The notes: a model not told the origin generated them from the letters alone. 64,000 nt of DNA from Candidatus Daviesbacteria bacterium (GCA_028715175.1 JAQUSJ010000002.1:92117-156116), one strand, 5' to 3'. Shown: positions 1 to 51,394, counted from the first letter of the stretch. Translations and numbers: made by a program.

Positions 1-1
1 T

Positions 2-223
<222 letters not shown>

Positions 224-252
224 ATTTCTTTATTCTATCGTATTATCTACCT

Positions 253-939: not shown

Positions 940-941
940 AT

Positions 942-1056
942 AGCTATCAGCTATCAGTCTTCAGTCGTCAGACAATTGCAATTTAAGTCTGAAAGCTGAC
1001 AGCTGAGAGCGAAACCGCGCCAAAGGCGGGCGAAGCGGTACTGACCGACTATTACT
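942..1056. repeat. Family-A heptad palindromic element, atpF|atpH junction
   Basis: tagctatcagctatcagtcttcagtcgtcagac-loop-gtctgaaagctgacagctgagagc, then gaagcggtactgaccgactattact directly before the ATG. Confidence 0.8.
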
Positions 1057-1545
1057 ATGGATCAAGAAATACTAAACATTATCCTAAAAGACACTTATTC
1101 CCTATCCCAGCTAAAGCACAGGCTGAGGATCTTAAAGTCTAACCTGCTAAAAACTTTTTTCGGAGGCGAGAACAATCAAACTTTAAGTTCCACTGCCCGG
1201 GATCTAAACTGGCTACAGTCACTGCCAGATAGCTTTTACCGAAAATTTAACAAGGATAATGTCTATCAGATTCTTACCGGCCTGGAAAAAGGAATTTCCG
1301 GGTTACCTGCTCTCACGATGTATCTTACATTTGAACCGGACGATGCAACTTTAAATCAAATCGGCTCTGTTGCAAGAAAAACATTTAATTCCCCCTTCTT
1401 AATTTTAGACATTAAACTTAATCCCAATTTAATTGCCGGAGCAGCCTTAGTTTGGAAAGGGGTATACAGAGATTATTCGCTTAGAGCAAAGGTCGAAAGC
1501 AGAAAACTTGAAATTATTGATGGATTTAAGAAGTTCCTTAGATGA
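1057..1545 (+). CDS. atpH: ATP synthase subunit delta (OSCP)-like
   Basis: 162 aa, immediately upstream of alpha with a 9-nt gap. Call rests on size and position; similarity is weak. Confidence 0.45.
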   Translation: MDQEILNIILKDTYSLSQLKHRLRILKSNLLKTFFGGENNQTLSSTARDLNWLQSLPDSFYRKFNKDNVYQILTGLEKGISGLPALTMYLTFEPDDATLNQIGSVARKTFNSPFLILDIKLNPNLIAGAALVWKGVYRDYSLRAKVESRKLEIIDGFKKFLR

Positions 1546-1554
1546 TTTTGAATT

Positions 1555-32525: not shown

Positions 32526-33083
32526 TTACCAACAGCCGGAGATCGGCGAGGAATAAAGACCCCATGACCAAATACCTGTACCATCCACTTTCGAGCAATC
32601 CGAACCTCCGTCTCTGGCCGGGCTAATCAGATTTTTCTGGCTTTGATAATCATTAGAACTAAATTCTGCTATACTATGATCTAGTATTGTATAGTCAGCA
32701 CCATTGGATCTATAAATGTAACAGCTTGCACTAGTGTCTTTATTCATTGAAGGATCCTGGGGGAAACCAGGCATATAGTTGGGAACAAAGCTGGGATAAC
32801 CTACGGGATTAGGAACAACTTGATCAGCAGCATAACCACCCCAACTGCTGCATTCTGACCTCCATCCGGTATCTGTACCCAAAGTCACTACCGGATAAGT
32901 TTTATTAACCGAATAATAAACCTCTAGAGCAGTTTGAATGGCTTTTAAATCCTGGGTTCTTTTGGCTGCCCTGGCGCTTTTTTGGACACCGCTATATATA
33001 ACTAGACCAACTGTGGATAAAATAGCAATAATTGAAATAACAATCAAAAGTTCAACCAAAGTAAACCCGCGGGCAGATTTCAT
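32526..33083 (-). CDS. Type IV pilin / pseudopilin (prepilin N-terminal methylation motif)
   Basis: MKSARGFTLVELLIVISIIAILSTVGLVIY: class III signal, G|FTLVE. Confidence 0.7.
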   Translation of the reverse strand: MKSARGFTLVELLIVISIIAILSTVGLVIYSGVQKSARAAKRTQDLKAIQTALEVYYSVNKTYPVVTLGTDTGWRSECSSWGGYAADQVVPNPVGYPSFVPNYMPGFPQDPSMNKDTSASCYIYRSNGADYTILDHSIAEFSSNDYQSQKNLISPARDGGSDCSKVDGTGIWSWGLYSSPISGCW

Positions 33084-33140
33084 AAGCTATATATTAAGTA
33101 TTACTTATTCAGAAAGCTAAAGTCAAAACAATAATAAAAA

Positions 33141-33260
33141 TCCCGGCAGTGAGGTATTTTCACATAACCTTGCGGATATATTATCGTCCCCGCTGAAGTG
33201 TTTGACGACTGAGTTCGGGATGGGATCAGGTCGGACCACTTCGCTCAAATCACCGAGGGT
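33141..33260 (-). rRNA. rrf: 5S rRNA
   Basis: Reverse complement contains CCGAACTCAG...GGTCCGACCTGATCCCATCCCGAACTCAGTCG, aligning to bacterial 5S; about 120 nt. Confidence 0.6.
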
Positions 33261-33314
33261 TACATTATATGACAGATGGAACCAACAGGTCAAATAGGAG
33301 ATTTGCCGGTAGTG

Positions 33315-33806
33315 TTATCTGCCTCCTTCATAATCATACCTGTACATAGTCCTGCCTGCTTCATTTACCGTACCAACATATTTTATCGTTTGATTTTGAT
33401 CATCTCTATTTTCTAAGCGAAATTCTATATTATAAGTATTATTGGCAAGCCTGAGATAGCAAAAATCAGGTCCGCCTGGAGATGAGGGTTCCAGTGGATC
33501 ATGAGGAAGATCTTTTATATGCACAGGCACTAAACCGGTAATATAGCTTGAGGTCCAACTGCTGCAACAGACCCAATTCGGGTCGTTTGGATACTTCCCA
33601 TTTATACTATTGTACGCTTCTAAAGCAATGTTCAAATCACGAAGACTAGACAAACGGTAAGTATCCCTGCTTTTGCTTTGGATGCCACCATAAACAATCA
33701 AACCAATTGTAGACAAAATAGCAATGATGGAGATAACTACCAGCAGTTCAACCATGGTAAAACCATGTTTACACCGGGTATAATCCAGATGAGCAGATTT
33801 ATTCAT
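33315..33806 (-). CDS. Type IV pilin (prepilin N-terminal methylation motif), located between 23S and 5S
   Basis: GFTMVELLVVISIIAILSTIGLIVY. Confidence 0.7.
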   Translation of the reverse strand: MNKSAHLDYTRCKHGFTMVELLVVISIIAILSTIGLIVYGGIQSKSRDTYRLSSLRDLNIALEAYNSINGKYPNDPNWVCCSSWTSSYITGLVPVHIKDLPHDPLEPSSPGGPDFCYLRLANNTYNIEFRLENRDDQNQTIKYVGTVNEAGRTMYRYDYEGGR

Positions 33807-34420
33807 GCCCTGAATATATCATTTACACCCTGAAATGTGAATACGGTCCGGCTTTGCCGGAGAAGGCTCAACTGCCCAACTTCGCTCAAAGAGCTATGTC
33901 GGGCAAAGCAAAAAAATCTCAACGTCGACCATTAGTATTGGTAGGCTAAATACCTTACAGCACTTACACCGCCAACCTATCTTCCGAGGTTAGTCGGAAC
34001 GACTATGCGTTAGCATAATCAACCTGGTAGTCTACCAGGGGTCTAAAAAGATACCTCATCTTGGGGTCTGCTTCGTGTTTAGATGCTTTCAGCACTTATC
34101 AGTTAGAAACGTAGCTACCCTGCGCTGCCACTGTAGTGACAACAGGCACACTAGAGGTTTCCTCATTTCGGTCCTCTCGTACTAGAAATAACTCCCCTCA
34201 AGTATCAAAACGCCCATACTGGATAGAGTCCGACATTATTGTAATCCGCCAACTGGCGGAGCTTGCTAGTTTCTTTTTCCTGCAAGCTCTCCGATTCGCA
34301 TCGGAGGTCCGACCATATCTTGCACGTTCATGTAAACTGAACGTACTCTAGCGTATGGCCTGTGAGGATTCTAGATTTCAGAAAACTCTGAATAACTCAG
34401 TTTGCCTGAGTATCAGATAA

Positions 34421-34789
34421 TCAGAAAATTCCTCCAGATTGCCAGTGAGTATGTAAAGAATTTATCCTTTTTGACAATACCTTATATCTTCCAGCTAAAT
34501 TTTTAGCTTCTAAAAATAGTTTAGGTTGTACTATTGCAATCATTCTTAGATGAGTTATCACCTCATCACTAGAACCTATCGCAATTTTTAGGAATCTTTT
34601 AAATTCTTTATCTGAAACCCGTTTAGCAAATCCTTCAGATATATTTGAAGCTATTGATTTACCTGATCGTTTAACTTGTAAAACCAAATCATATTCTGAT
34701 TTTGGCAATTTCTTGGTTAAATTATATAAGTCAGGTAATAGCTTCAGGGACTCTATGTAAACCTCCAAATCAGAAACATCTTTGATCAT
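34421..34789 (-). CDS. Four-helix-bundle protein (23S rRNA intervening-sequence protein family), encoded inside a 23S insertion near E. coli position ~2593
   Basis: LP..EYDLVLQVKRSGKSIASNISEGFAKRVSDKEFKRFLKIAIGSSDEVITHL matches the S23-ribosomal / four-helix-bundle consensus. Confidence 0.65.
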   Translation of the reverse strand: MIKDVSDLEVYIESLKLLPDLYNLTKKLPKSEYDLVLQVKRSGKSIASNISEGFAKRVSDKEFKRFLKIAIGSSDEVITHLRMIAIVQPKLFLEAKNLAGRYKVLSKRINSLHTHWQSGGIF

Positions 34790-35220
34790 TATTTTATCTT
34801 AACAGATCTTCTGACATTCTGAATTTCTGATCTACTGAGTCTTTCTGAGTAATTCCGAAGTCTAGTCTTTCCTGCTGATTATCTTGCTCCTTTATCCTAG
34901 GATGGATAACCATTTTCACTAGTATATAAATACTACACTAGTAGATTATCATTTACAAGACGTTCCAGCATATAGCTAGATTTTGTATCTCCATATTAGA
35001 TTTTTGACAAAAAGATTTTTCAAAATTCTCGAAGGTTAAAACGTCGATGGAGAAAGACAGTTCTTCTCTAAAAGCTGTCTTACGACGCTCTGAACCCAGC
35101 TCGCGTACCGCTTTAACTGGCGAACAGCCAGACCCTTCCCACCTACTTCAGCAGGAGGATGCGATGAGCCGACATCGAGGTGCCGAACCTTGCCGTCCTT
35201 GTGGACTGTAGGGCAAGACT

Positions 35221-35251
<31 letters not shown>

Positions 35252-35568
35252 ATAAGCCCTGACGCTCCCACGAGCCATCAGGGGATCATTAAGACCTACT
35301 TTCGTATTAGCTCGACATGTACGTCTCGCTATTAAGCACACTCTATACCTTTACGCTTGATGCGCGATTTCCTTACGCGCTAAGTGTACCTTAGTACCCC
35401 TCCGTTACTTTTTTGGAGGGAACCGCCCCAGTTAAACTGCCCGCCAGACCTTGTCCCAAACCCTGTTTTTATAAGGGTTAAGGTGAGACCTAAATTCAAA
35501 AAAGAGAGGTGTTTCATTGTTGCCGAAGCTCCCTCCTACGCTACACAATTTTAAATTTAAATCAGGGT

Positions 35569-35604
<36 letters not shown>

Positions 35605-35758
35605 AAGTATGGGAAGGCCGCATCTTCACAGCCATTGCAATTTCGCCGGGTCTATCCTCAAGACAGTCGCTAAGTCGTTCAACCTTTCGTGCGGGTCTGA
35701 ACTCACCAGACAAGGAACTTCGCTCAATTATGTTGCTGTGACAATCTAATCGTCACAT

Positions 35759-36289
35759 CTACACATCGCTGTGTAGTTCGGACTCTATCTTCTCTGGACC
35801 TTCCAGAGTTCGACGTATTAGTCTCTGAGGATTCTTAAGATCTCTAAAACTTTGTAAACCGTCTGCTGTTAAGTGTAGATTACTTAATTTCATCTCCACT
35901 GCTTTACAAAAAGTTTCAAAATCATTTTTCTTATAAGTTAGTAGTTTGTTTGCTTTAAAAAAAGGAATAATCTTTTCGCTTAAATCTTTCGTAGAACGAA
36001 CGCAATAGCGGTAGATATTTTCTTTATGGTTATCATAGCGTCTATTTACATAGATTGCTCCGCATCCAAAAAAGTCTTTGATGATTTGTAAACTATCTAA
36101 ACTTTTCTGGCCTTGTGTAACCACAAATTCAGGCATTACCTGAAATCCGCTTTTGGTTGTTCTATTTTTAAAGATAGAAACTGAAAAGCATCCTTCTCCA
36201 TCCACAAAACCAACTATCCAACTTGAGATCCTAAGTCTTTCCTGCTGATTGTCTGCACCGGATACATTTTTAGTTGAAATTTTAGGCAT
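35759..36289 (-). CDS. LAGLIDADG homing endonuclease, encoded in a 23S rRNA intron (site ~1931)
   Basis: WIVGFVDGEGCFSV LAGLIDADG-type motif; 176 aa; flanked by 23S exon sequence on both sides. Confidence 0.75.
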   Translation of the reverse strand: MPKISTKNVSGADNQQERLRISSWIVGFVDGEGCFSVSIFKNRTTKSGFQVMPEFVVTQGQKSLDSLQIIKDFFGCGAIYVNRRYDNHKENIYRYCVRSTKDLSEKIIPFFKANKLLTYKKNDFETFCKAVEMKLSNLHLTADGLQSFRDLKNPQRLIRRTLEGPEKIESELHSDV

Positions 36290-37206
36290 TAATCCAGTAT
36301 TACCCGAATCTTACCCAAATGTCAACTAGTACCGGATACGCCAGATTTTCCAGCATATAGTCAAATTCTAAAAACACACCACCATCTGAGGCTTTGAAAT
36401 TCCAAAACCATAGAACAGTTATAGTTACTGCTGCCGTTCACCAGATCTTAGGCCCCAGGCTCATTCCGCCTTACGGCGGAAGTCACTTGAGACAGTAAAT
36501 TACTGGCACTGGGCAGGTGTCAGCCCCTATACATCATCTTTCGATTTAGCAGGGACCTGTGTTTTTGTTAAACAGTCGCTTAGCGTCTTTTGTTGTAATC
36601 AGGCTTACGCCTGACAGGACATCTCCCAAAGGTTACGTCCAGCTTTCGTTGCCGAGTTCCTTAAGGATAGTTCTCCCGATCGCCTTTGTATACTCAACTC
36701 GCCCACCTGTGTCGGTTTACGGTACGGTTAAAATTATTCTCTTACACGAGTATTTTCCTGGAAACAGAAAAATATCTTGTTACCTCATCGTAACTCGATT
36801 TTGTAGTCCGACAGATTACTCCATCGGACTAAGTCGAAATCTCGACTTGGAAGCGGATTTACCAACCTCCACTACCTTGTTACTTAATCCCGAACATGTC
36901 GGGAAAGATTTTTCCCACTTCGTCAACCCTTGAAAGCTCCTTCGACCCCGATAAATCGGGACTCAGGACTTGTCAGAATAACTCTAATACAGGAATTTTA
37001 ACCTGTAATCCATCGGCTAATCCGCTTGTTGCGGGCTCACCTTAGGACCGATTAACCCCCGACCGATTAACGTTGTCGGGGAAACCTTGGGCATTCGGCG
37101 ATAACGTTTCTCACGTTAATACGCTACTCATACCGGCATTCTCACTTCTATACAGTCCACCTCGCCTTACGGCGGGGATTCACTCCATATAGAACGCTCC
37201 TCTACC

Positions 37207-37312
37207 GCACTCACGCTCCGCGTGAGAGTTATTAGTTATGAGTTCATAGTTCATAGAAAATTACTACGAACTACCAACTACGAACTACCAACTCTCGTGC
37301 GAAGCACGAGTA
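37207..37312 (-). repeat. 23S IVS cassette 1: CACGCTCCGCGTGAGAG ... CTCTCGTGCGAAGCACGAG flanks around a TTCATAG/CGAACTAC repeat hairpin
   Basis: The same 17-19-nt flanks as IVS cassette 2; inserted in 23S. Confidence 0.6.
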
Positions 37313-37924
37313 CCCAAAGCTTCGGTAGCAAGTTTAGCCCCGATTAATTGTCGGCGCCTTCACCCGTAGTAGACCAGTGAGCTGTTACGCTATCTTTAAA
37401 AGGTGGCTGCTTCTAAGCCAACTTCCTGGCTGTCTAAGGATAAAGACTACCTTTAACACTTAACTTGCATTTAGGGACCTTAGCTGTTGGTCTGGGTTGT
37501 TTCCCTTGAGACCGCTCCGCTTAGCCGGATCGGACTGACTCTGAAGTTAACATTGCAGTATTCGGAGTTTGATTGGTCCCGATGACTTGCGTCACCGAGG
37601 ACCATCCAGTGCTCTACCCCTGCAATTAAAACTTTCAGGCTATACCTAGATATATTTCGAGGAGAACCAGCTATCTCCGAGTTCGTTAGGCATATCACCT
37701 CTAACCACATCTCATCCCAAGTTATTGATACAACAACGGGTTCGGGCCTCCTCCGGCATTTCTGCCGGGTTCACCCTGGACATGGATAGCTCACTCGGTT
37801 TCGGGTCTATCGCATCCTTAATAAAATCGGGCTATTAACCCTCGCTTTCACTACGCTTTCGCCACAGAATGGCTTAAGCAAAAAGGATACGGTAACTCAC
37901 CGGTTCATTCTTCAATAGGCACGC

Positions 37925-38042
37925 GATCCTCACGCTCCGCGTGAGAGTCTCCAGCTATCAGCTATCAGCTATCAGACAAGCGCAAAATGCGTTTTGTTTT
38001 GTCTGACGACTGACAGCTGACGACTGAAAGCTCTCGTGCGAA
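37925..38042 (-). repeat. 23S IVS cassette 2: same CACGCTCCGCGTGAGAG ... CTCTCGTGCGAAGCACGAG flanks, carrying a full family-A heptad palindromic element
   Basis: ccagctatcagctatcagctatcagac...gtctgacgactgacagctgacgactgaaagct lies between the flanks. Confidence 0.65.
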
Positions 38043-38106
38043 GCACGAGTTTCACTGCTTGTCAACATACGGTTTCAGGTACTATTTCACTGAGCGTTTC
38101 GCTCTT

Positions 38107-38146
<40 letters not shown>

Positions 38147-38812
38147 CGAAAGTATATTTAGCCTTAGCAAGTGGTCTTGCTGGATTCACACAGGATTACA
38201 CGTGTCCTGTGTTACTCAGGGATCGGATTGTGGTAGCTTAAATTTCGATTACGGGACTATCACCCTCTGTGGTGTCGCTTTCCAGCGACTTCTTCTATCC
38301 TCGCTACATCACGTATATCCGCCCTACAACCTCCGGCTTGCGCCGGATTTAGGCTGTTCCCTTTTCGCTCGCCGCTACTTGGGGAATAAACTATTGTTCT
38401 CTTTTCCTAGCCTTACTTAGATGTTTCAGTTCGGGCTGTACCCTCCGTTAACCTATGAATTCAGTTAACAGTTCCGGCAAAGCCGGATGGTTTTCCTATT
38501 CGGAAATCTTCGGATCAAAGCTTTTTGGCAGCTCCCCGAAGCTTATCGCAGCCTAATACGTCCTTCATCGGTACTTTCGACCAAGGCATCCACCGTATGC
38601 ATTATTGTTGAGTATTTTTTGGCTTGTAATCCCGCTTTTAGCGGGATAAATTGGCCTTCTTAATTTATCCGTATTCACATTTCAAAGTGCAAAAGTAGTG
38701 CTGAGCATGTTCGTGCGTTGCACTCACTTGAGTTCATAGAATCCTCTACCAACTACAAGTGAGCAAAGCTCACGAACTAATAACTCATAACTACGAAGCG
38801 AAGCTTCGTAAG

Positions 38813-38885
38813 TGGACCGTGGCGGGCTCGAACCGCCTACCTCTTCATTGCAAATGAAGTGTTCTACCAGCTGAACTAACGGCCC
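38813..38885 (-). tRNA. tRNA-Ala (TGC)
   Basis: Acceptor GGGCCGT/ACGGTCC with G3:U70; anticodon loop TTTGCAA; T-arm GGCGGTTCGAGCCCGCC. Directly upstream of 23S. Confidence 0.7.
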
Positions 38886-39120
38886 AATTTAGTTCATGGT
38901 ACGGCTCTCGCCTTCGGTTCACAGTTCACAGAAAAATCATATTACTATGAACTAATAACTATGAACTAATAACTTGTTAAAAAGAGGTATACAACGCTGG
39001 AAATCCGCCAGCCGGCGGATCCAGCTGGGAGGAATTATGTATTTAGTGCGTTGCTTCTCATTATGTGTGAATTAATCACCATCTGGAAGTTTATCAAAAA
39101 CGGGACTGCAATGTCAACAC

Positions 39121-40143
39121 TTACGCTTTGCCCACATTAATTACCTGTTCAATCAATCTATTTGAATACCCCCATTCATTATCATACCAGGCAAAAACTT
39201 TCACAAAATCCCCATCCACTACCTGGGTTAATCCCAAATCAACTATGGCTGACTCGCTCCTTCCCACAATATCGGCAGAAACTATTGGCTCATCAGTTAC
39301 AGCCATAATATTTTTTAGTTCTCCCTGACTTGCTTGCCTTAAAGCTTCATTAACTTCCTCCACCGTAACTTTTTTCTTGAGGAGAAAGGTAATATCGGAA
39401 ATTGACCCGACAATAATCGGCACCCTCATAGACATTCCGTCAAATAATCCTTTTAAAGCAGGGATTACCTCGGTTGTGGCAACTGCCGCACCTGTTGAGG
39501 TGGGAATCATATTCACTGCAGCAGCCCTGGCTCTTCTTAAATCTTTATGGGGCCCGTCCTGTAAAGACTGATCCTGGGTATAAGCATGGATTGTAGTCAT
39601 ATAGGCTTTTGCTATACCAAATTTATTATTGATTACATCAACAACAGGAGCAATGCAATTTGTGGTACAGGAGGCATTATTAACCAGTGTTTCTCCTTTA
39701 TAATCCTGGGCATTCACCCCGATCAAAAGTGTTTTTACTCCTTCGCCTTTGGCCGGAGCAGACAAAACCACTTTTTTGGCACCAGCCAAAAGATGCTGCT
39801 TCATACCCTCGGCATCAGTAAATTTGCCTGTTGACTCAATCACCACATCTACGTTTAGATCTTTCCATGGTAACCTGGCTGGTTCTTTTTCTTGATATAC
39901 TGTGTAGGGATTTTGATCTACTATGATATGTCCTGAGCCTGTCGAAGAATCATCTGATGAAACTTCGTGATCCCATACCCCATAAGCGCTGTCATATTTT
40001 AAAAGATGAGCTAAAGTGGCCGGAGAAGTTAAATCATTTATACCAACAATTTCAATTTCGTCGCTATGTTTTTCTATAGCAACCTTAAAAGCGCTTCTTC
40101 CTATTCTTCCAAAACCATTAACGGCAACACGTAGCATAATCAA
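39121..40143 (-). CDS. gap: Glyceraldehyde-3-phosphate dehydrogenase
   Basis: NGFGRIGR N-terminus; active site SCTTNC; WYDNEWGYS C-terminus. Confidence 0.9.
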   Translation of the reverse strand: MIMLRVAVNGFGRIGRSAFKVAIEKHSDEIEIVGINDLTSPATLAHLLKYDSAYGVWDHEVSSDDSSTGSGHIIVDQNPYTVYQEKEPARLPWKDLNVDVVIESTGKFTDAEGMKQHLLAGAKKVVLSAPAKGEGVKTLLIGVNAQDYKGETLVNNASCTTNCIAPVVDVINNKFGIAKAYMTTIHAYTQDQSLQDGPHKDLRRARAAAVNMIPTSTGAAVATTEVIPALKGLFDGMSMRVPIIVGSISDITFLLKKKVTVEEVNEALRQASQGELKNIMAVTDEPIVSADIVGRSESAIVDLGLTQVVDGDFVKVFAWYDNEWGYSNRLIEQVINVGKA

Positions 40144-40146
40144 ATA

Positions 40147-41229
40147 TTACGACAAAGCTTCTATTGTTGGCAAGGTCCCATCTGTTAAAAATTTTAACAT
40201 CGCCCCTCCGCCGGTTGAAATGAATCTGCTCGGCTTATCAGCCTTCGCATCTTCGCGCTCGCTATCGCTCGCACTAAAAGCTTTTTCTTCTACTTCAGAA
40301 AGTAATCCGTACTCTCTTAAGGCAGAAATAGTATCCCCACCTCCAATAATAACTTGTGCGCCTGAATCTAAAACCATTCGGGCTATCTTTTTAGTAGCAT
40401 CATTTTTGGGATCCTCAAACTTACCCAAGGGCCCGTTCCAGACTATCATCCGGCTTTGCCGGATAAGCCCGGCCCAGGCTGAAGTGGTTTGCGGAGCAAT
40501 ATCAAATCCATCCTCATTTAACATCCCAACCAGCACATTTTTGGGCAAACTTAAATTCTCTGTTCTTATCTCACTAATCAGCTTGCCACCCACCAAAACA
40601 GCGTCTGCTTTTTCTGCCAGAACTTTGATGACAGACAGTTTATCCGCAACTTTGGCTCCTCCCATGATTGCCACAAAAGGTTTTTTGGATCCGCCAGTTG
40701 GCGGATTCCTGACACCAGCTAAAACCCTAACTTCTTCTGCAAACCTTAAACCAGCATAGTGAGGTAAAAGTGTAGGTAAAATAGTGGTGGAAACAGCAGG
40801 TCTGTAAGAAGCAAATGCTTCATTAACAAACACATCACCCATATTTGCCAGTTCTTTAGCAAAACTTAAATCCCCGGCTTCCTCTCTGGGATCGAATCTT
40901 AAATTTTCCAGTAATTTTAGCTTCCCACTCGTCAAGTGGGAACGTAAACCTTGATCCTCAAACCACTGTTTGATAGGAGCTACTGATAGCTCCTCAACCG
41001 CTTTGCCTTCTGGTCTGCCAATATGCCCCATGACAATTGTCTCTTGAGCATTTTCCAAACACATTTTTAATGTTGGCAAGCCTGCTCTTAACCTAAAATC
41101 TTCAAGCACCACAAGATTCTGGTCTGATGACTGATGACTGATGACTGATGACTTTCCTATCGGGACATCTATATCTAAACGAAGTAAGACTTTTTTGCCG
41201 GAAACGAACTGAGGACTAATGATTTGCAT
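40147..41229 (-). CDS. pgk: Phosphoglycerate kinase (with short in-frame repeat-derived insertion VISHQSSDQ)
   Basis: RLDIDVP...; GGAKVADKL; ISTGGGAMLKFL. Confidence 0.9.
   Translation of the reverse strand: MQIISPQFVSGKKVLLRLDIDVPIGKSSVISHQSSDQNLVVLEDFRLRAGLPTLKMCLENAQETIVMGHIGRPEGKAVEELSVAPIKQWFEDQGLRSHLTSGKLKLLENLRFDPREEAGDLSFAKELANMGDVFVNEAFASYRPAVSTTILPTLLPHYAGLRFAEEVRVLAGVRNPPTGGSKKPFVAIMGGAKVADKLSVIKVLAEKADAVLVGGKLISEIRTENLSLPKNVLVGMLNEDGFDIAPQTTSAWAGLIRQSRMIVWNGPLGKFEDPKNDATKKIARMVLDSGAQVIIGGGDTISALREYGLLSEVEEKAFSASDSEREDAKADKPSRFISTGGGAMLKFLTDGTLPTIEALS
41121..41162. repeat. Family-A half-element (GACTGAT heptads x4) in frame in pgk
   Basis: gtctgatgactgatgactgatgactgatgac, encoding VISHQSSDQ. 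Confidence 0.6.
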
Positions 41230-41269
41230 AAAGTTATCTTATCATAATAAACCACATCAACTTCTTAAT

Positions 41270-41698
41270 TTATTCATCAAAAAAATTCTGGCCTGTTTTT
41301 AGGGCTTGCAGATAAGAACGAGTTGTTTCAAAAAGAGGCTTTGGTAAATTATCAAATTCATACCATTGCCATCCTTCTATTTTTGCAGGTTCTAAAACTT
41401 TAGGGATACCTGATTTCCACTCCGCTGTCAGACCAATATCAACGTAGTGTTTACCTTTGTACCTTTTGAGATTATAAAGACGCAAGAATTTGACATTTTT
41501 AATCTTAATCCCTGCTTCCTCCAGACATTCTCTTTTGGCGCATTCAATTATTGATTCCCCAAATTCCAAATGTCCACCCGGAAAGGCATATTCTCCTGCT
41601 CCGTGCGAACCTGTTCTTTTACCGAGCAAGACTTTACCGTTTTTAAAAACTAACACTCCAATTCCAACTTTTACTTGAGAATTATTTTTAAAAACCAT
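41270..41698 (-). CDS. Nudix hydrolase
   Basis: Nudix box GGHLEFGESIIECAKRECLEEAGI. Confidence 0.75.
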   Translation of the reverse strand: MVFKNNSQVKVGIGVLVFKNGKVLLGKRTGSHGAGEYAFPGGHLEFGESIIECAKRECLEEAGIKIKNVKFLRLYNLKRYKGKHYVDIGLTAEWKSGIPKVLEPAKIEGWQWYEFDNLPKPLFETTRSYLQALKTGQNFFDE

Positions 41699-41705
41699 TT
41701 TGTAG

Positions 41706-41777
41706 TGGGCGGTAATGGTGTCGAACCATTGACCTCTTACTTATCAGATAAGCGCTCTACCGCTGAGCTAACCGCCC
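41706..41777 (-). tRNA. tRNA-Ile (GAT)
   Basis: GGGCGGTTAGCTCAGCGGTAGAGCGCTTATCTGATAAGTAAG...GGTTCGACACCATTACCGCCC; anticodon loop CTGATAA. Confidence 0.7.
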
Positions 41778-41801
41778 AAACTCAAATATTTTATCAGATC
41801 G

Positions 41802-41875
41802 GAGGCCACGATCGGACTTGCACCGATGAATCGCGGTTTTGCAGACCGCTCCCTTAGCTACTTGGGTACGTGGCC
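41802..41875 (-). tRNA. tRNA-Cys (GCA)
   Basis: GGCCACGTACCCAAGT...GCGGTCTGCAAAACCGC...GGTGCAAGTCCGATCGTGGCC; anticodon GCA. Confidence 0.55.
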
Positions 41876-42485
41876 AAGCATACTGTATTTTAGCATAGAA
41901 GAGATTATAGAGAAAAGATTAATTTTTAGAAAACGAGGTAAGCTTGGTTAAAGGCGAGAGACGTTCTTCAGGTCCTGGAATCTCATATGGACAACGCTCT
42001 GCTGATCTCTCAACTGGAGGCGTCTTTCCCTGCCACCAACCTATTATCCCATCTATTAGCCGATGTAGGAAATTTTGCTTTAATGGAATCCGACCTAATA
42101 GAAACGATCTGGGTGACCTATTTACCAAAAGTTTTGCAGAGTGTTCTACAGAATTTAAGCCATAAAACGGCCTCTTCTGCTGCTCTACTCCCAAATCAGG
42201 AAGACTGGTGATATCTGTTCTCTCCATAGGTACACAAAAGTCTAGAGATTTAGACAGAGACCAAGACTCTGGTGATGTACTCATACTTTAAAATAATAAT
42301 TAATACCAAAAGAGTGGTGGGGATAGTGATCATCCCGATTGACTATCAGGATAGCGCGCTATCACGCTTTTCGCCTACCATTCAATAGGCATTTGTCCGG
42401 TCGTGAGACCGAGACTGGATCAAATCCGCGCTTTACCCTGCACCGAATGGTGCGCGGGAATCATCAGATTTGAACAAAACTCCAG

Positions 42486-44800
<2,315 letters not shown>

Positions 44801-45108: not shown

Positions 45109-45189
45109 TCTCTAACTTTCTCCTTTTTACCCACAAAAAAACTAACTCTTTGTGAGTATTTGTATTTTAACTCCACTCCTTTGCTTCTG

Positions 45190-46386
45190 TCAACCCTGGA
45201 AAACTTTAGCCAAGGCAGGATAATCTTGCAAACTGGTTTCCTCTTTTATTCCATCCCGACCACCCTCTCCATCTTCTGTCCACCCTAGAGGTGGAGTTGT
45301 ATTGGCACCCCAGGGTTCTGTCGGTGTAATATTTCTTTTTTTCGCTACTCTTCTATGTACTTCTACATAAGCTTGTGCAGGCTTAACAACATGATATTTA
45401 AAAACCCGCGCCACATCTTCATTTCTCACAGGATTGCCATTTCCCCCCACTTTAACAGGTTTTTTCTCCGCCACAACCCTATCAAACCTACTCACCGCCT
45501 GCTCCTCTGACTCCAACTCGCCGATGTCTGCTATTTCTTCTACTGTTTCCTGATAAGAACCATCCAGCCCTGTTTTTTTAACCACCTGACTTCTGTTATC
45601 TTCATGTTCGGCAGGCAAAAACCTGGCCACCATACCTCCTGTAACTACGCTGACCAAACTACCTACGATCGTAAATGCCAGCTTAATCGCTCGCCTGATT
45701 TCAAACCTTCTTACTTGTGAAACTTCCTTATCTTCCAAATAAAGTCTTTTTTCTACAAACTCCTCTTCTCCTAAAGTCTCCTTTGGCTTTTCAACTTTTA
45801 CTTTTTCCTTAACCAGTTTTTCTACTTCTTGCTCTTTTAAAGCAGGGTTTGTAGCTGGAAGAACAACTTGGGCTGGCTGATTGACAATTTTAGTTTCAGT
45901 TAATGGCTGCAACTTTGACCGGGCTTCTATAGCAGGTTCTACAGCCGATCGCGCCAAAAAAGCAACCATAAATTGGATCCCAACATTCGTCGGGATGACG
46001 GAGGGGAAAATGACCGATTTTTGAGCCTGGGCAAGAATAGTATCTGCTTCTGCAATTACAGATGAAACTGATAAAGGCTCACTAAATCTAATCTCTTTAA
46101 CTGGATTCAACTTTCCTATTTGTAATGGCATAGTGTTTTCTAAATCTGCAAGAGCAACCGGACTTTCATTAACAATTCTTGTTAGTGGCCCTTCAAGCTT
46201 CGGTCCGATGCTATTTAATAACCCTCCAATTGGAGCTGCTTCAAAAGTTGGCGCTAGAAAGCTTGGTCCACTAACTGAAGCAGCTCCTACTGAAGGCATC
46301 TCACCGAAGATTCGTCCCAGAGATGCACCTCTACCTACCGCAGAAGCTACAGTTCCCATTGCTGATCCAATCGCTTCAATACCCAT
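45190..46386 (-). CDS. Hypothetical protein, Gly/Ala-rich N-terminus, one predicted TM helix, Lys/Glu-rich middle
   Basis: 398-aa ORF; N-terminal GxxxG/A-rich IGSAMGTVASAVGRGASLGRIFG; no recognised domain. Confidence 0.45.
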   Translation of the reverse strand: MGIEAIGSAMGTVASAVGRGASLGRIFGEMPSVGAASVSGPSFLAPTFEAAPIGGLLNSIGPKLEGPLTRIVNESPVALADLENTMPLQIGKLNPVKEIRFSEPLSVSSVIAEADTILAQAQKSVIFPSVIPTNVGIQFMVAFLARSAVEPAIEARSKLQPLTETKIVNQPAQVVLPATNPALKEQEVEKLVKEKVKVEKPKETLGEEEFVEKRLYLEDKEVSQVRRFEIRRAIKLAFTIVGSLVSVVTGGMVARFLPAEHEDNRSQVVKKTGLDGSYQETVEEIADIGELESEEQAVSRFDRVVAEKKPVKVGGNGNPVRNEDVARVFKYHVVKPAQAYVEVHRRVAKKRNITPTEPWGANTTPPLGWTEDGEGGRDGIKEETSLQDYPALAKVFQG

Positions 46387-46471
46387 ATATGATTTTCTAT
46401 TGCTTCATTGTTTAATTGCTAAATTGCTTTAAAACAATGTAACAATGACAACAATATAACAATTTTGTCCC

Positions 46472-46500
46472 TTGACTGCTTGATATAAAACTGTTATAAT
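46472..46500 (+). promoter_or_regulatory. Sigma70-type promoter TTGACT-17-TATAAT for the 46511 gene, in a divergent intergenic region
   Basis: ttgact at 46472-46477; 17-nt spacer; tataat at 46495-46500; ATG 11 nt downstream. Confidence 0.5.
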
Positions 46501-46510
46501 CCTGACGAAA

Positions 46511-47650
46511 ATGGCTATAAAACAGCGGTACAATTTTAAAGAAGCAGAACTGGGGCCAAACTTTGCCCAGGATAAATTAAAAGAATTTAAGTCTCTGATT
46601 GATGCTGGCCTTTCTTTTGTGGTCCTGTCTATGCCCGGAGTCGGTGTTTCTTATTTTTTAAAATACCTGGCGGCAATGCAAAACTTTGCCCATTTTATCC
46701 ATGTGGATTTATATAACCTGCCAACCCTTTCGCAACATGAGTTTTACAAATTACTGCTTTCAGAATTGGGCGGTAAACCCGGTTCAAAAACTGATGACCA
46801 GTTATTGCTGGAAGTAAAAAAAGCTATTGCCGCTCTCGCCCAAAAGAAGGAAAGAGTTGTGATTATTTTTAGCAGATTTGATCAACTTAAAAGTCAATTC
46901 GACTGGAATTTCCTGTCTAATATCCAGTCTTTATCAACTGTAGTACCTGATAAAGTCGTCTTAATCTTTACTTCTGTCAAGCCTATGCCTGAGATAATCC
47001 CTGCTGAAGCGCTTGCCGGAGGGAACTTAAATTTTTACTCAGAAATTCTATATTTCAAACCATATTCCAAAGATGATCTAAAAAAACTATTGGAAATTGA
47101 GCCTCCCAGACCTGGTCTGGGAAAACCAACTCTGGAAAAACTGCTGGAATTATCAGGCGGTCATAACCAGCTTTTGCATATCCTGTTAAGTTCTCAAAAG
47201 AAACAGTTTTTGCTGGATCAATTTGTAAAAATGCAAATGAAGGAATTTATGGACTACCTGAATTACCATCAAAAAAAGACCCTGCAAAAGATTACCCAAG
47301 GCAAGACCGTAACTGATATAGATGAATACCTGCTGGGCGTAGGCATGATAAACAAACTTCAATTTTTTACTCCTCTGCTCTCGGAATATATCAAAACAAA
47401 TCTGCCGGTTAAACTACCTGTGAAGGAGGCAAAACTTTTCAAATTACTGTGGCAAAACATGGGCAAAACTGTGACAAAAGATGAAATTTTCAGAGAAGTT
47501 TGGAGTCCGTCTGACGCCGGATCTGAAGAAACAACTGATTGGGCTTTGGATGCCTTAATTTACAGACTCAGAAACCATCCGTTTATGAAGACTCATGGCT
47601 ACATTATCGAAAGCCACAAAAAAGTAGGATACACTTTAATCCAAAGTTAA
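46511..47650 (+). CDS. Regulator: degenerate P-loop NTPase-like N-domain plus C-terminal OmpR/PhoB-type winged-helix DNA-binding domain
   Basis: SMPGVGVSYFLKYL P-loop-like (no Lys). C-terminal KLFKLLWQNMGKTVTKDEIFREVW...ALDALIYRLR...GYTL matches trans_reg_C. Confidence 0.55.
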   Translation: MAIKQRYNFKEAELGPNFAQDKLKEFKSLIDAGLSFVVLSMPGVGVSYFLKYLAAMQNFAHFIHVDLYNLPTLSQHEFYKLLLSELGGKPGSKTDDQLLLEVKKAIAALAQKKERVVIIFSRFDQLKSQFDWNFLSNIQSLSTVVPDKVVLIFTSVKPMPEIIPAEALAGGNLNFYSEILYFKPYSKDDLKKLLEIEPPRPGLGKPTLEKLLELSGGHNQLLHILLSSQKKQFLLDQFVKMQMKEFMDYLNYHQKKTLQKITQGKTVTDIDEYLLGVGMINKLQFFTPLLSEYIKTNLPVKLPVKEAKLFKLLWQNMGKTVTKDEIFREVWSPSDAGSEETTDWALDALIYRLRNHPFMKTHGYIIESHKKVGYTLIQS

Positions 47651-47677
47651 ATGCAATCATGTCAAAAGGTGAAATAA

Positions 47678-48010
47678 TTAACTTAATGGAGATCTATTTT
47701 TAATACCTTCTACTTCCCGAGTAAGTCTATCTTCAATAATTTTATGTAAATTAGGAATTTTTGAGGCGAAATCTTGAATTTTATTTGCCATCTCCACGCT
47801 TCCCGGCTCCAAATGTTCTATCTGGCTAAACTGCTCCTTATCCAAAGCCCCTATAACTATCTCGGCAATAACTTTATACAGGTGATCACGGATGCTGTCT
47901 GTCATCTGCTGTTTTCTATCAGGAGATAGACTCACAAAAACCGGCGAGTTAATACAATCTGATACCAAACCTTCGATATATTCATTAATCTGTTGATCTG
48001 CTTGGTCCAT
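47678..48010 (-). CDS. Hypothetical small acidic protein
   Basis: 110-aa ORF in tight tandem with the 48024 gene; no recognised motif. Confidence 0.35.
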   Translation of the reverse strand: MDQADQQINEYIEGLVSDCINSPVFVSLSPDRKQQMTDSIRDHLYKVIAEIVIGALDKEQFSQIEHLEPGSVEMANKIQDFASKIPNLHKIIEDRLTREVEGIKNRSPLS

Positions 48011-48023
48011 AAATTATTTGAGT

Positions 48024-49847
48024 TTATTTTTTAACCATAGCCAAAATGGCATTTTTAATTGTATCATCTATCTTGATTGGAAACCCTACTGGGAGCGCGC
48101 GATGGTCAATAGACCCTTTTATACCCCAGGAAGGCACACTAATACCGTTTTGCTGACAGATGATTTTATCAAGCTCCATAATCTCTTTAGGCGAAGGAGC
48201 TTTGCCTAAAACATCTTTTAATATCTTAGTTGAAACTTCCCATGGGTTTGATCCAGCCTCAAGAGGAATGAAACCTCCCAATGAATTTAATACCTCGGTA
48301 GCATGCGCCTCAACTGCGGCTGCCGAAGCATCGGTCAATTGGTCAATGTGACCTTCAAAAACTTTAGCCAAAGCATTAATTTGTTCAGATGAAAATTGAT
48401 GACCTCCAATTTCTACCACCTTCCCTTTTGCAGCTGCTTCCCGTAGAGCTTGTACTATTGAATGTTGACTATCAACCGGAACCTCTAGTCCAACTGCCTG
48501 ATCGGCATGTAATGCTTCATTAAGTGCTCCTTTAGCACTTTCAAATAATTGGTCGTGAGACTCTTTCAAAACTTGCCCATATTGGTCATGACCACTGGAA
48601 ACTGCCTCAGCTAGGCTATCTGAATGTTGTGCTGCAGCATCGGCAAAAACATTGTTAGCTTGTGCTTCTGCCGCCTGTTGTACAGCATATCTTACCTGTT
48701 CAAATTGTTCAGCTGACAGTTGACTTGGATCCATTCCATGGGCCAATATAGCTTCTAGCGTAACATTATCAATATCCCCAAGATGTTCCCCCACAGCAGC
48801 CTCAGTCTCTTTCCTTAAACCATCTACTACCTCTTCCGGAGATAAATTGACATCATGAATTTTCGAAGCCGCATCAGCCAAAATATCTGGAGGATTAGAG
48901 GTAACCCCTTCGACTGCACCACCAGGTAACGGAGATGTCCATTCGTCGATTTTTCCAATTAAATCTCCAGTTGTCTGGTTAATCGCCTGGCCTGCCCTAC
49001 CCAAAGCATTTCCCGCTCCTGCCGCACCAGGAATATTATTTCTGGCTGTCTCTTTTGCTTCCCCTAAAATATTTCCGCCTGTTTCGCCTGCTGCTCCAAG
49101 TACACCACCTATTTTCTTACCAGCTTCACCAGCCACGCTTCCGATTGTCTCTCCAGCCCTACCGGCTGTATTTCCCACTGTTTCACCAATATTTCCAGCT
49201 ACTTCGCCTGCCCCATGACCGACTTCTCCGGCCATGTCGCCAACTCCCCGGCCGATATTTCCCGGCAACTCCTTTAACCAATCTAATTGACCTGACTCCC
49301 ACATTTCGCTTACAACCTCGGCAAAAGCTCCACCTAAGGCTCCGAAAGCTGCTCCTTTTGCACCAGCTATACCAATCGCTTTCATATCGCTCGGCTTTAA
49401 ACTTCCCACCATACGTCTCTTTTGTCGAGCTAATTCCCGTGCCTCTTCGCTGCTTCCCTCACCAGTTTCCAAATCCCGAATCCGTTGTTTAATCCCTGCA
49501 TTATGCTCAGCTACCTCCTTCCAGCTTCTCCGTGCTTGTTTAAAATATTCTCTTCCAGCTCCCACTATAAGCCCGGCTGTCCCTCCTACCGCAATCCTTC
49601 CTACCACTCCTGTAGCAGCACCTACCCACAGATGTGTCAATAGTTCCCTTGCTACTGTCTTAGCGCCAATGCTTGCTGCCATTCCTGCTCCGAATTCGGC
49701 CGCATACCCTGCATGACTTCCCACAAAGCTTAGGGCTGATCTCCCAAAAACCTGAAGTTTCTGCAGTCGTGCTCCTAATTTATCAACACTGCTTGAAAGC
49801 TCTCCTTCATGAGGTAAGCCTTCTCTAGCCGATCCCCTATCTTCCAT
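48024..49847 (-). CDS. Hypothetical Gly-rich protein with glycine-zipper N-region and tandem ~7-residue G-E-x-x-G-N/x repeats
   Basis: AGYAAEFGAGMAASIGA...VGAATGVVGRIAVGGTAGLIVGAG; GEVGHGAGEVAGNIGETVGNTAGRAGETIGSVAGEAGKKIGGVLGAAGETGGNILGEA. Confidence 0.5.
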   Translation of the reverse strand: MEDRGSAREGLPHEGELSSSVDKLGARLQKLQVFGRSALSFVGSHAGYAAEFGAGMAASIGAKTVARELLTHLWVGAATGVVGRIAVGGTAGLIVGAGREYFKQARRSWKEVAEHNAGIKQRIRDLETGEGSSEEARELARQKRRMVGSLKPSDMKAIGIAGAKGAAFGALGGAFAEVVSEMWESGQLDWLKELPGNIGRGVGDMAGEVGHGAGEVAGNIGETVGNTAGRAGETIGSVAGEAGKKIGGVLGAAGETGGNILGEAKETARNNIPGAAGAGNALGRAGQAINQTTGDLIGKIDEWTSPLPGGAVEGVTSNPPDILADAASKIHDVNLSPEEVVDGLRKETEAAVGEHLGDIDNVTLEAILAHGMDPSQLSAEQFEQVRYAVQQAAEAQANNVFADAAAQHSDSLAEAVSSGHDQYGQVLKESHDQLFESAKGALNEALHADQAVGLEVPVDSQHSIVQALREAAAKGKVVEIGGHQFSSEQINALAKVFEGHIDQLTDASAAAVEAHATEVLNSLGGFIPLEAGSNPWEVSTKILKDVLGKAPSPKEIMELDKIICQQNGISVPSWGIKGSIDHRALPVGFPIKIDDTIKNAILAMVKK

Positions 49848-49905
49848 AATTATATTTCCTCTTTATTCTCAGAATAGCAAATTAGAAAAATTCTGTAAAT
49901 AGATG

Positions 49906-50445
49906 TCATTTATAAAGATGTCTTTCCACTACTTTATAAACCACTATTCCCAAACTAACCATTACATTTAGAGAAATATTTACTCCAAACATAGGGATTT
50001 CAACTATGGCATCTACTACTTCCAGCACCTCTTTTGACACTCCATAAGTCTCATTTCCCACTACCAGACAAATTGGTAGTTTATAATTAAATTCATCATA
50101 TTGAACACTTTTTGTACTCTGTTCTATGGCTACAATTTGTATATCGTTTATCGTTAATCGTATATCGTTTATTGCTTCAGTAGCCGACTCTTTATAGCTC
50201 CACTCCACCCATTCTGTGGTATTAATAGAAGCCTTTTTAATCCGGTGATTGGGCGGGGTTTCTGTTCCTCCACAAAGATAGATTTTTTTTGCAGCTACCG
50301 CATCTGCTAATCTAAAGATAGAACCAATATTATAAGTATCTAAAACATTATCTAAGATAATATAAATATCATTTTTCTTAATCTGACGACTGATAGCTGA
50401 CGACTGACTACTCTTCCTCAGCTGGGCTGCATTAAGTTTTACCAT
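49906..50445 (-). CDS. SpoU/TrmH-family RNA 2'-O-methyltransferase (start placed at internal Met to avoid overlap; ORF track gives 49906..50541)
   Basis: LVVGNETYGVSKEVLEVVDAIVEIPMFGVNISLNV matches SpoU motifs; the N-terminus includes the repeat-derived KSSQSSAISRQ. Confidence 0.65.
   Translation of the reverse strand: MVKLNAAQLRKSSQSSAISRQIKKNDIYIILDNVLDTYNIGSIFRLADAVAAKKIYLCGGTETPPNHRIKKASINTTEWVEWSYKESATEAINDIRLTINDIQIVAIEQSTKSVQYDEFNYKLPICLVVGNETYGVSKEVLEVVDAIVEIPMFGVNISLNVMVSLGIVVYKVVERHLYK
50381..50412. repeat. Family-A half-element in the 5' region of the SpoU methyltransferase ORF
   Basis: atctgacgactgatagctgacgactgactact, which gives SSQSSAISRQ on the minus strand. Confidence 0.55.
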
Positions 50446-50473
50446 AGCCTTTATTTTAACACTAACCTTAAAT

Positions 50474-51394
50474 TTAGAGATTTTTTGCCAGAGTAATTTT
50501 GGAGAAAAGATCTGAGATGGAGCACCAAAGATTATTGGCAAAAGCTAAAAGAGGTTTATTTTGAGGAGTGGAATTTTGAGCGTGAGAACCAATCCAAGTC
50601 CATTCCCAATAGATATTGGTGGTCTTTGTACCCGGATTGTCACCACTCCAATTGTCGCAATTATAAGGAAGGCCGCTAACAGCCATATTGGCCCGAATAG
50701 GATAACTCTGCGTCGAAGAGAAATTGTGGGTCCAATAAGCTACATCTGTACCCTCCTCGTTATATCTTGCGCATGGCTCATAATCACCGGCAAGATTATA
50801 ACGCAACCGTTCATCAGGTGGGGTGGTATCTGGACAATGGCAACAGTTCGGATGGCCTTTTAAACAGGCGCTAGGCGCGCTGTCATCTTTTGTCTCAGTG
50901 CCGCCCGGACGGTTGCTAACATTTTCAAGGCGCCACCAACCACTACCATTTAAATATGCCACTCCCATCACCATACGTCCATTTCTTCCTGTTGAACACG
51001 TCTGTAAATCACCACCACCAATCCCACTACCAGCATTAGATCCAGCTCTGGCTGAAAAAATAGCAATACCATGACTGTCTGTGTTCACAGTCCAAGTAGG
51101 ACCAGTTGAATATTTACCGCAATCAAAATTACAACAACCTCCACCTTGATCCCAAAGAGCTACGTCACGGCTACAATCATAACAGGCACAATCAGGACAC
51201 GCATCTGTATCGCAATTGCAGTATTCTCCAGTCCTTAAAATAACCATTTTACCCACCACTGGACTACCATCCTCATACTTTAACCTGACAATATGGGAAG
51301 CAGAAGCAAAGGTAGGTTTGCTATTTAGAGCAAAAACCGGAAAAATAACCAGCAGGGAAAGAAAAATAAAAAAGATTTTAATTTGAAACCTCAT
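50474..51394 (-). CDS. Secreted Cys-rich protein (signal peptide)
   Basis: N-terminal MRFQIKIFFIFLSLLVIFPVFA; 30 Cys including CNCDTDACPDCACYDCSRD. Confidence 0.5.
   Translation of the reverse strand: MRFQIKIFFIFLSLLVIFPVFALNSKPTFASASHIVRLKYEDGSPVVGKMVILRTGEYCNCDTDACPDCACYDCSRDVALWDQGGGCCNFDCGKYSTGPTWTVNTDSHGIAIFSARAGSNAGSGIGGGDLQTCSTGRNGRMVMGVAYLNGSGWWRLENVSNRPGGTETKDDSAPSACLKGHPNCCHCPDTTPPDERLRYNLAGDYEPCARYNEEGTDVAYWTHNFSSTQSYPIRANMAVSGLPYNCDNWSGDNPGTKTTNIYWEWTWIGSHAQNSTPQNKPLLAFANNLWCSISDLFSKITLAKNL

Follow-up and report, generated by a model that had tools for sequence, protein, structure and literature searches.

We examined four adjacent genes of a Candidatus Daviesbacteria bacterium (GCA_028715175.1), which occupy positions 45,190 to 49,847 of the 64-kb window analysed here (W; the whole stretch of 64,000 nucleotides, JAQUSJ010000002.1:92117-156116, to which all positions refer). 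This 4.6-kb region is two functionally separate units and not one module. The first, as synteny shows, is a conserved Daviesbacteria backbone locus beside the 16S rRNA gene; it comprises a 379 amino acid (aa) transcriptional regulator and, divergent from it, a gene for a 398-aa protein. The second is an inserted two-gene cassette encoding a 607-aa protein and a 110-aa acidic partner, for which the pairing is seen directly in related loci and a function can be suggested. A preliminary description of the region had placed four open reading frames (ORFs) here, all of which we recover at the same coordinates and on the same strands, and had read them as a single module with a dedicated regulator; this reading is refuted by the synteny described below. 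Our favoured explanation as a whole, a backbone regulator locus next to a cassette for an envelope protein and its cytoplasmic partner, has in our estimate about an even chance of being right. The coordinates of all features are collected in Table 1.

In genomes of the candidate phyla radiation (Patescibacteria) most genes lack an annotation, and little is known of how such tiny cells make their envelopes or attach to partners. Here, four “hypothetical proteins” become two defined units that can be tested. If the cassette should turn out to serve ordinary envelope anchoring, the value of the result would lie mainly in annotation.

The separation of the two units follows from a comparison of the window with loci L001, L003, L005-L008 and L010-L018 (L014 and L012 are the same locus, as are L015 and L011). 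In five other loci of Daviesbacteria/Microgenomates, the backbone has a common order: the 16S rRNA gene, a protein of approximately 390 aa, the divergent regulator and a convergent gene for a SpoU-family RNA methyltransferase. The regulator is found without the 607/110 pair in five loci (L005-L008, L018), and the pair without any regulator homologue in the recovered DNA in six contexts (L003, L013, L014, L015, L016, L017). The space between regulator and SpoU is empty in L005 and L006, where the two genes overlap by 4 nt. Elsewhere it holds a PIN/MazE pair (L008), a 90-aa ORF with a PIN gene (L018), a PIN gene, a kinase-like gene and others (L007) or, in L001, a Fic gene, the 607/110 pair and approximately 3 kb more, beside a duplicated 3' fragment of SpoU. 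Judging from these gene orders, the regulator/SpoU junction is a hotspot for accessory-gene insertion. Since its contents vary so much, we regard the pair as a passenger in this slot, to which the regulator is not dedicated; by synteny, the regulator is a core Daviesbacteria transcription factor lying upstream of the 16S rRNA gene, with SpoU as its ancestral neighbour. Taken as a set of four, the orthologues are scattered without shared synteny, an outcome that the preliminary description had itself set against the module, whereas those of the two-gene pair are not.

The pairing of the two cassette genes is well conserved. A partner of approximately 108 aa lies immediately downstream of a member of the 607-aa family in W, L001, L003, L013, L014, L015, L016 and L017, that is, in eight of nine distinct contexts; the exception is L010, where the large gene is truncated. 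The two genes are co-oriented, with a gap of 2-17 nt where the start of the partner is clear, and they are probably co-transcribed and possibly translationally coupled. Thus one part of the earlier proposal stands, a large protein with a small acidic partner (isoelectric point 4.84) as an adjacent, co-oriented pair in eight independent contexts, and the other does not, because the 398-aa gene and the regulator belong elsewhere. It had also been stated that none of the proteins has an evident homologue. We find 318 homologues for the regulator, 26 for the partner and syntenic orthologues for the 398-aa protein; for the 607-aa protein, a word-indexed search returned only three close homologues and an exhaustive profile search 148 cluster representatives. 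None of the homologues of the four proteins is characterised. Pattern scans of GTDB genomes and of JGI metagenomes gave two loci each, and literature searches returned nothing on the 607-aa family. The pair is thus a real, uncharacterised and lineage-restricted family assembled from known kinds of parts. Within Daviesbacteria it occurs in only three lineages and at two different locations.

The neighbours of the pair differ from one lineage to another. In L013, L015, L016 and L017 it sits in one conserved neighbourhood, beside a class Ib tRNA synthetase and a 523-aa protein, and divergent neighbours in L013, L015 and L016 have weak matches to LytR_cpsA_psr (LCP). The pair of L003 is flanked by VKOR/DsbA and Redoxin/DsbD genes. 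The 989-aa family member of L014 has, two genes upstream and divergent from it, a gene (1-2228, minus strand) for a 786-aa protein that combines FHA and Yop-YscD_cpl domains; this neighbour is perhaps a sign of an envelope or secretion complex in the lineage concerned.

What kind of protein is the large product? What unites the family is a C-terminal region of approximately 85 residues: 117 of 149 proteins have it, almost invariably at the very end of the chain and sometimes in duplicate. The predicted structure of this region has the beta-alpha-alpha-beta arrangement of the LysM fold, and its top fold matches include LysM-like baseplate proteins (9gtp_P, 7aeb_M, pyocin PA0627, P2 gpX). A profile search of the PDB with the domain gave chance-level matches only. 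A member of the family in L017 (2-1351, plus strand) has two LysM-like copies, the first of which lacks the VPxWGI insertion and is by eye nearer to canonical LysM (…NGIVDARKIPAGTVLNY); this insertion-free copy suggests that the insertion is a derived feature.

The remainder of the 607-aa protein has no credible Pfam, NCBIfam, PHROGs or PADLOC family (nor does the protein as a whole) and is best described by its composition. The glycine zippers of the preliminary description are present: GxxxGxxxG occurs eight times against 1.4 in shuffled sequences, and none of 2000 shuffles reaches eight. Six of these motifs start at residues 199, 210, 221, 232, 243 and 254, in polar 11-residue repeats, and only two of the eight lie in hydrophobic segments (19-residue Kyte-Doolittle maxima of 1.52 and 1.30). 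The repeats had been taken for about ten GE(T/V)xGN heptapeptides. GE[TV]xGN is found only three times; the real unit has 11 residues, G-x-x-G-x-x-x-G-x-x-A, in six or seven clean copies between residues 196 and 272, and the glycine autocorrelation peaks at lags 11 (0.44) and 22 (0.31). The copy number varies, the repeats being largely deleted in P0003 and expanded in P0127. Hydrophobic Gly/Ala segments are common across the family, with values of 1.6-2.0 for the equivalent segments of relatives, and the large protein does have the look of a membrane-associated one. The loop between the two segments is basic throughout the family (median Lys plus Arg content of 24% versus 6% downstream; the loop has the higher content in 56 of 56 members). 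The part downstream of it is net acidic across the family. Pro-rich linkers are found in 71 of 117 members.

The partner has no credible match in Pfam, NCBIfam, PHROGs or PADLOC, and chance-level matches only in a PDB profile search. DUF5663, a family of Patescibacteria considered as a candidate, was dropped: it is absent among the Pfam families shown for the 26 homologues at E-values up to 1.

We propose the following reading of the region. A core transcription factor is transcribed from a strongly conserved, probably leaderless promoter, divergent from the gene of approximately 390 aa, and the 607/110 cassette has landed in the variable slot between this regulator and SpoU. The 607-aa protein is probably a membrane-anchored protein of the cell envelope. 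Its N-terminus and Lys/Arg-rich loop would be cytoplasmic, its Gly/Ala-zipper helices would lie in the membrane, and its acidic C-terminal two-thirds, made up of the Gly-stripe spacer, a helical domain and the LysM-like domain, would be outside the cell; we place the basic loop inside and the acidic part outside because the positive-inside rule fits the charge asymmetry of the family. The 11-residue repeats would act as a spacer of variable length, and the LysM-like domain would attach to a glycan of the cell wall or to a partner in the envelope. The 110-aa protein would probably serve the large protein as a cytoplasmic chaperone or adaptor, perhaps by way of the basic loop. Every step from the membrane anchor onward is one that we infer.

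Several points weigh against the envelope reading. The 607-aa protein has no signal peptide, and the hydrophobicity of the window member is marginal (Kyte-Doolittle 19-residue maximum 1.52); for these reasons we infer its membrane insertion and topology and do not assert them. The full-length model is poor (predicted local distance difference test score 45.3, from a three-sequence alignment), and its Foldseek matches against the PDB all have E-values above 1 and are meaningless. Pfam LysM (PF01476) matches neither the window protein at an E-value of 0.1 nor any of 78 family members at 0.01, and hhalign against seven canonical LysM sequences entered by hand gives a probability of 2.8%. Because LysM sequence profiles do not match, we call the domain LysM-like in fold and not a recognised member of the family. 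The LysM-like folds of phage and injection-system baseplates bind protein and not glycan, so glycan binding is not guaranteed. The LCP and Dsb neighbours are hints that are weak or confined to a single locus, and the role given to the partner is purely conjectural.

Some of these points would suit a different protein, a cytoplasmic or membrane-peripheral scaffold with amphipathic helices on the inner face of the membrane, a LysM-like fold used for protein contacts and the 110-aa protein as co-subunit, for example in division or envelope biogenesis. The absence of a signal peptide, the marginal hydrophobicity in the window member, the baseplate domains among the top fold matches and the cytoplasmic character of the partner would all be expected of such a scaffold, as would the 11-residue periodicity with its face of glycine and small hydrophobic residues. 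We nevertheless consider it fairly unlikely, given that the asymmetry between a basic loop (56 of 56 members) and an acidic C-terminal part is family-wide, that Pro-rich linkers, which are typical of wall-spanning regions, are so frequent (71 of 117), and that several relatives are clearly hydrophobic, with values of up to 2.0.

The preliminary description had likened the region to a toxin/immunity module. Here the 607-aa protein would be a Gly-zipper toxin that forms pores or otherwise damages membranes, its LysM-like domain would target walls, and the 110-aa protein would render it harmless to the producer. We find no toxin, antitoxin, immunity or defence domain in either protein (Pfam, NCBIfam, PHROGs and PADLOC). 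A protein without a membrane segment, such as the partner, would be an unusual protection against a pore former. The partner also evolves slowly: its ratio of nonsynonymous to synonymous substitution rates (dN/dS) is 0.10-0.11. That of the 607-aa gene is 0.24, and the values of the pair are similar to those of the neighbouring regulator (0.19) and SpoU (0.14). Purifying selection acts on both genes of the pair, strongly so on the partner, which is at least as conserved as the large protein. The single stable neighbourhood beside the class Ib tRNA synthetase in four loci is as expected for vertical inheritance. Set against this are the enrichment in Gly zippers, the tight and conserved linkage to a small partner, the PIN and Fic genes that the slot carries in relatives, the patchy occurrence in Daviesbacteria (three lineages, two locations) and the variation of the N-terminus and of repeat number; on balance, a toxin/immunity pair seems to us quite improbable. 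Still more so, to the point of being very improbable, is the remnant of a phage or contractile-injection tail, with a tape-measure-like protein, a gpX-type LysM-like end and a small chaperone: the distant relative in L014 (989 aa) has a weak PHROG tape-measure match (E-value 0.002) and 4 of 78 members have coiled-coil-type Pfam matches (Phage_scaffold), but the window protein has no PHROG match, the viral structure library gave none for its C-terminal domain, no other phage genes flank the pair in nine contexts, and both genes are under purifying selection.

The envelope reading can be carried further. In such an extended form, the 607/110 pair would be a surface device specific to Microgenomates, with a membrane anchor lacking a signal peptide, a Gly-stripe stalk of 11-residue repeats that varies in length among strains and a distal, divergent LysM-like domain that would grip cell-wall glycan; the wall could be the cell's own or, as these ultra-small bacteria attach to host cells, that of the host. 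Insertion would be independent of Sec and would require the dedicated partner in the cytoplasm. As a separate proposal, the regulator and the gene of approximately 390 aa could form a lineage-specific control point for rRNA transcription. We give little credence to the two proposals jointly. The cassette's large product does end in a confidently modelled LysM-like domain, and its glycan binding, topology and interaction with the partner are directly testable.

We now turn to the backbone unit, in which a core Daviesbacteria regulator combines a near-invariant, lysine-less P-loop with a conserved, probably leaderless promoter near the 16S rRNA promoter. The two parts of the regulator noted earlier, a degenerate P-loop (SMPGVGVS) and a C-terminal winged helix, are both confirmed. 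In a Pfam scan Trans_reg_C (PF00486) scores 42 bits, above the curated cut-off of 26.2, and a profile of the regulator family hits CovR, WalR, ArlR and ToxR in the PDB, in each case in the DNA-binding domain. The N-terminal domain has a weak AAA_22 match (E-value 8.9e-5; 23.3 bits, under the cut-off of 27) and no sequence match in the PDB by profile search; PF13401 is precomputed for a few homologues. Since the 120 best of the 318 homologues are 61-100% identical, we regard the regulator as a strongly constrained core gene. Counted over these 120, the P-loop motif SMPGVG[V/A]S is conserved position by position as S 119, M 109, P 119, G 120, V 117, G 120, V/A 118 and S 119. The Walker A pattern GxxxxGK[ST] is absent: where it would have its lysine, 86 of them have V, 32 have A and 2 have T (lysine in 0 of 120). 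The domain is P-loop-like and probably non-hydrolysing. Pfam finds neither a receiver (Response_reg) nor a BTAD domain, and NCBIfam matches cover just the C-terminal 80 residues or so, far under cut-off. The regulator is therefore neither a response regulator nor a SARP. Beyond SARPs, literature searches returned nothing on this architecture.

The promoter of the regulator deserves separate mention. The near-consensus TTGACT-17-TATAAT reported in the 124-bp intergenic region is found at 46472-46500, with a TG-extended -10 in addition. Promoter-like sites number 14 in a 6-kb region against 13.0 in shuffled sequences, no excess, so a consensus match alone is no evidence; we count this promoter as real because it is conserved in relatives. 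A block of 43 nt, CTTGAC[T/A]GCTTGAT...AAACTG[T/A]TA[T/C]AATCCTGA[C/T]G, is positioned at a constant 10-11 nt upstream of the regulator ATG and is near-identical in six loci (W, L001, L006, L007, L008, L018), while the regulator proteins of these loci are merely 63-81% identical and the DNA flanking the block has diverged. The block occurs once in the window. Because just 10 nt separate the -10 element from the ATG there, the regulator mRNA is probably leaderless. No comparable minus-strand promoter in the intergenic region faces the 398-aa gene, so the “clean divergent promoter” described earlier is valid toward the regulator and not in the other direction. The site TTTACA-17-TATTCT upstream of the 607-aa gene has 9 of 12 consensus matches with TG; it is shared with L001 and not conserved in L003, and is weak evidence. 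The spacer between the 398-aa gene and the regulator contains two back-to-back arrays of 8-bp repeats. They are specific to this genome, with one copy each in the 86%-identical relative L001 and none in L005-L008, and look like a local expansion; as candidate operators of the regulator the ATTGCT/AACAAT repeats were rejected, being absent from relatives apart from the single copies in L001.

By its synteny the 398-aa gene also belongs to the regulator/16S backbone and not to the 607/110 pair. Orthologues of 26-37% identity occupy the same position in L006, L007, L008 and L018, and in L001 the gene has shrunk to a remnant of approximately 80 aa. The protein has no Pfam, NCBIfam, PHROG or PADLOC match. 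Its sole hydrophobic stretch, residues 230-258, is not hydrophobic in the orthologues, and the claim that it is a second Gly-zipper protein rests on one GxxxGxxxG motif (0.18 expected), which approximately 20% of shuffles equal, and has to be given up. The region lies directly upstream of the 16S rRNA gene, which is itself interrupted by a LAGLIDADG intron ORF. The probable 16S rRNA promoter, approximately 365 nt upstream of that gene, is conserved as TTGACA-18-TA[AG]AAT-ACAAA in W, L001, L006, L007 and L008. The gene of approximately 390 aa has its stop codon inside the -35 hexamer or directly against it in the loci read (in the window, GGT-TGA-CAG with TGA inside it), and so always finishes right at the rRNA promoter. 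An extra ORF of approximately 111 aa lies between this gene and the regulator in L007 (1853-2191, minus strand) and L008 (2438-2773, minus strand) and is missing from the window; the L007 copy has a weak HicA-toxin-like match (E-value 1.5e-4, under cut-off).

Table 1. Positions, strands and properties of the features discussed, in window coordinates
Feature	Position	Strand	Remarks
16S rRNA promoter (probable), TTGACA-18-TAAAAT	45164..45193	-	11 of 12 consensus matches
398-aa fast-evolving backbone protein	45190..46386	-	divergent from regulator; ends at 16S promoter
8-bp repeat arrays	46399..46463		ATTG(C/T)T x4, then reverse complement AACAAT x4; back to back in spacer
Conserved regulator promoter block, CTTGACTGCTTGAT...AAACTGTTATAATCCTGACG	46471..46510	+	-35 at 46472-46477; extended -10 at 46492-46500
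Regulator, 379 aa	46511..47650	+	P-loop nucleoside triphosphatase (NTPase)-like N-domain without Walker A lysine, helical region, C-terminal OmpR/PhoB-type winged helix
Degenerate P-loop SMPGVGVS, residues 40-47	46628..46651	+	
Trans_reg_C winged helix-turn-helix, residues 299-376	47405..47638	+	Pfam E-value 1e-10
Insertion slot, regulator/SpoU junction	47651-49905		holds the 607/110 pair in the window
110-aa acidic partner	47678..48010	-	starts 13 nt after 607-aa gene; no Shine-Dalgarno sequence; no hydrophobic segment
607-aa protein, uncharacterised Microgenomates family	48024..49847	-	
C-terminal LysM-like domain, residues 522-607	48027..48284	-	VPxWGIxGxxD insertion; extra C-terminal helix
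11-residue Gly-stripe repeats, residues 196-272	49032..49262	-	Gly spacing 3-4-4
Second Gly/Ala-rich hydrophobic segment, residues 156-181	49305..49382	-	zipper GAAFGALGG
Lys/Arg-rich loop, residues 99-155	49383..49553	-	14 Lys plus Arg in 57 residues; predicted cytoplasmic
First Gly/Ala-rich hydrophobic region, residues 38-98	49554..49736	-	conserved VFGRS motif; zipper GGTAGLIVG
Promoter-like TTTACA-17-TATTCT (49871-49899) and GAGG Shine-Dalgarno (49858-49861)	49858..49899	-	upstream of 607-aa gene
SpoU-family RNA methyltransferase	49906..50541	-	Pfam E-value 9e-32; other edge of slot

The SpoU ORF as listed begins with TTG and encodes 211 aa; orthologues have 175-194 aa and align from approximately residue 33. 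Its true start is probably the ATG at 50445, the listed ORF being over-extended, and this start removes an apparent overlap with a 306-aa ORF at 50474-51394. Elsewhere in the window, the rRNA genes are unlinked and interrupted (33141-44798). The 16S gene carries a LAGLIDADG_2 ORF (43040-43636) and is followed by tRNA-Cys, tRNA-Ile, NUDIX, PGK and GAPDH genes, tRNA-Ala and then the 23S gene, which carries a LAGLIDADG_1 ORF (35759-36289). Past the 23S gene there are a 23S_rRNA_IVP ORF (34421-34789), a pilin-like ORF (33315-33806) and the 5S gene; on either side of the 5S gene is an ORF (185 aa and 163 aa; 32526-33806, minus strand) whose product has a prepilin methylation motif at its N-terminus. 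An isoprenoid/mevalonate cluster at 56571-63098 encodes undecaprenyl-diphosphate synthase, polyprenyl synthetase, HMG-CoA reductase, an HMG-CoA synthase-like protein, thiolase and a GHMP kinase. A minimum of cumulative GC skew at approximately 59 kb was considered as a replication origin and rejected: mevalonate-pathway genes lie there, and it coincides with a change of gene strand and not with a dnaA gene.

How do the two units compare with known systems? The C-terminal DNA-binding domain of the regulator is, by profile, like those of the OmpR/PhoB response regulators (CovR, WalR, ArlR) and of ToxR. It differs from the former in having neither a receiver domain nor a phospho-acceptor site, for which reason we do not consider it to be of the two-component type, and from ToxR in having no transmembrane segment. 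The nearest described combination is that of the SARP and SARP-LAL regulators, in which an OmpR-type winged helix is joined to an NB-ARC or AAA ATPase domain (PMC12224297), so that a Trans_reg_C winged helix and a P-loop-NTPase-type domain likewise share one polypeptide. In SARPs, however, the winged helix is N-terminal and followed by BTAD, whereas in the window regulator the NTPase-like domain comes first and the winged helix last, and BTAD is absent. The Walker A lysine is also lacking in 120 of 120 homologues examined, and the regulator, with only 379 aa, is encoded by a core gene next to the 16S rRNA gene and does not belong to a biosynthetic cluster as its regulator.

For the cassette, the translocator/chaperone pairs of type III secretion offer an analogy: a large protein that has hydrophobic helices as well as helical or coiled stretches stands beside a small, acidic, soluble partner, and one member of the 607-aa family has a weak SseC match (E-value 0.007). 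In contrast to those pairs, the window pair has no secretion-system genes nearby, and its partner has no detectable similarity to chaperone families. The terminal domain of the large protein is to be compared with the peptidoglycan- and chitin-binding LysM domains and the LysM-like domains of contractile-injection baseplates (PDB 9gtp_P, 4uz2_A, 5jce_B, 7aeb_M, 2ltf_A). Unlike these, it has approximately 10 residues (VPxWGIxGxxD) inserted ahead of the final strand and one more helix at its C-terminus, and it is carried on a signal-peptide-less protein with Gly zippers, 11-residue repeats and a paired partner of approximately 108 aa.

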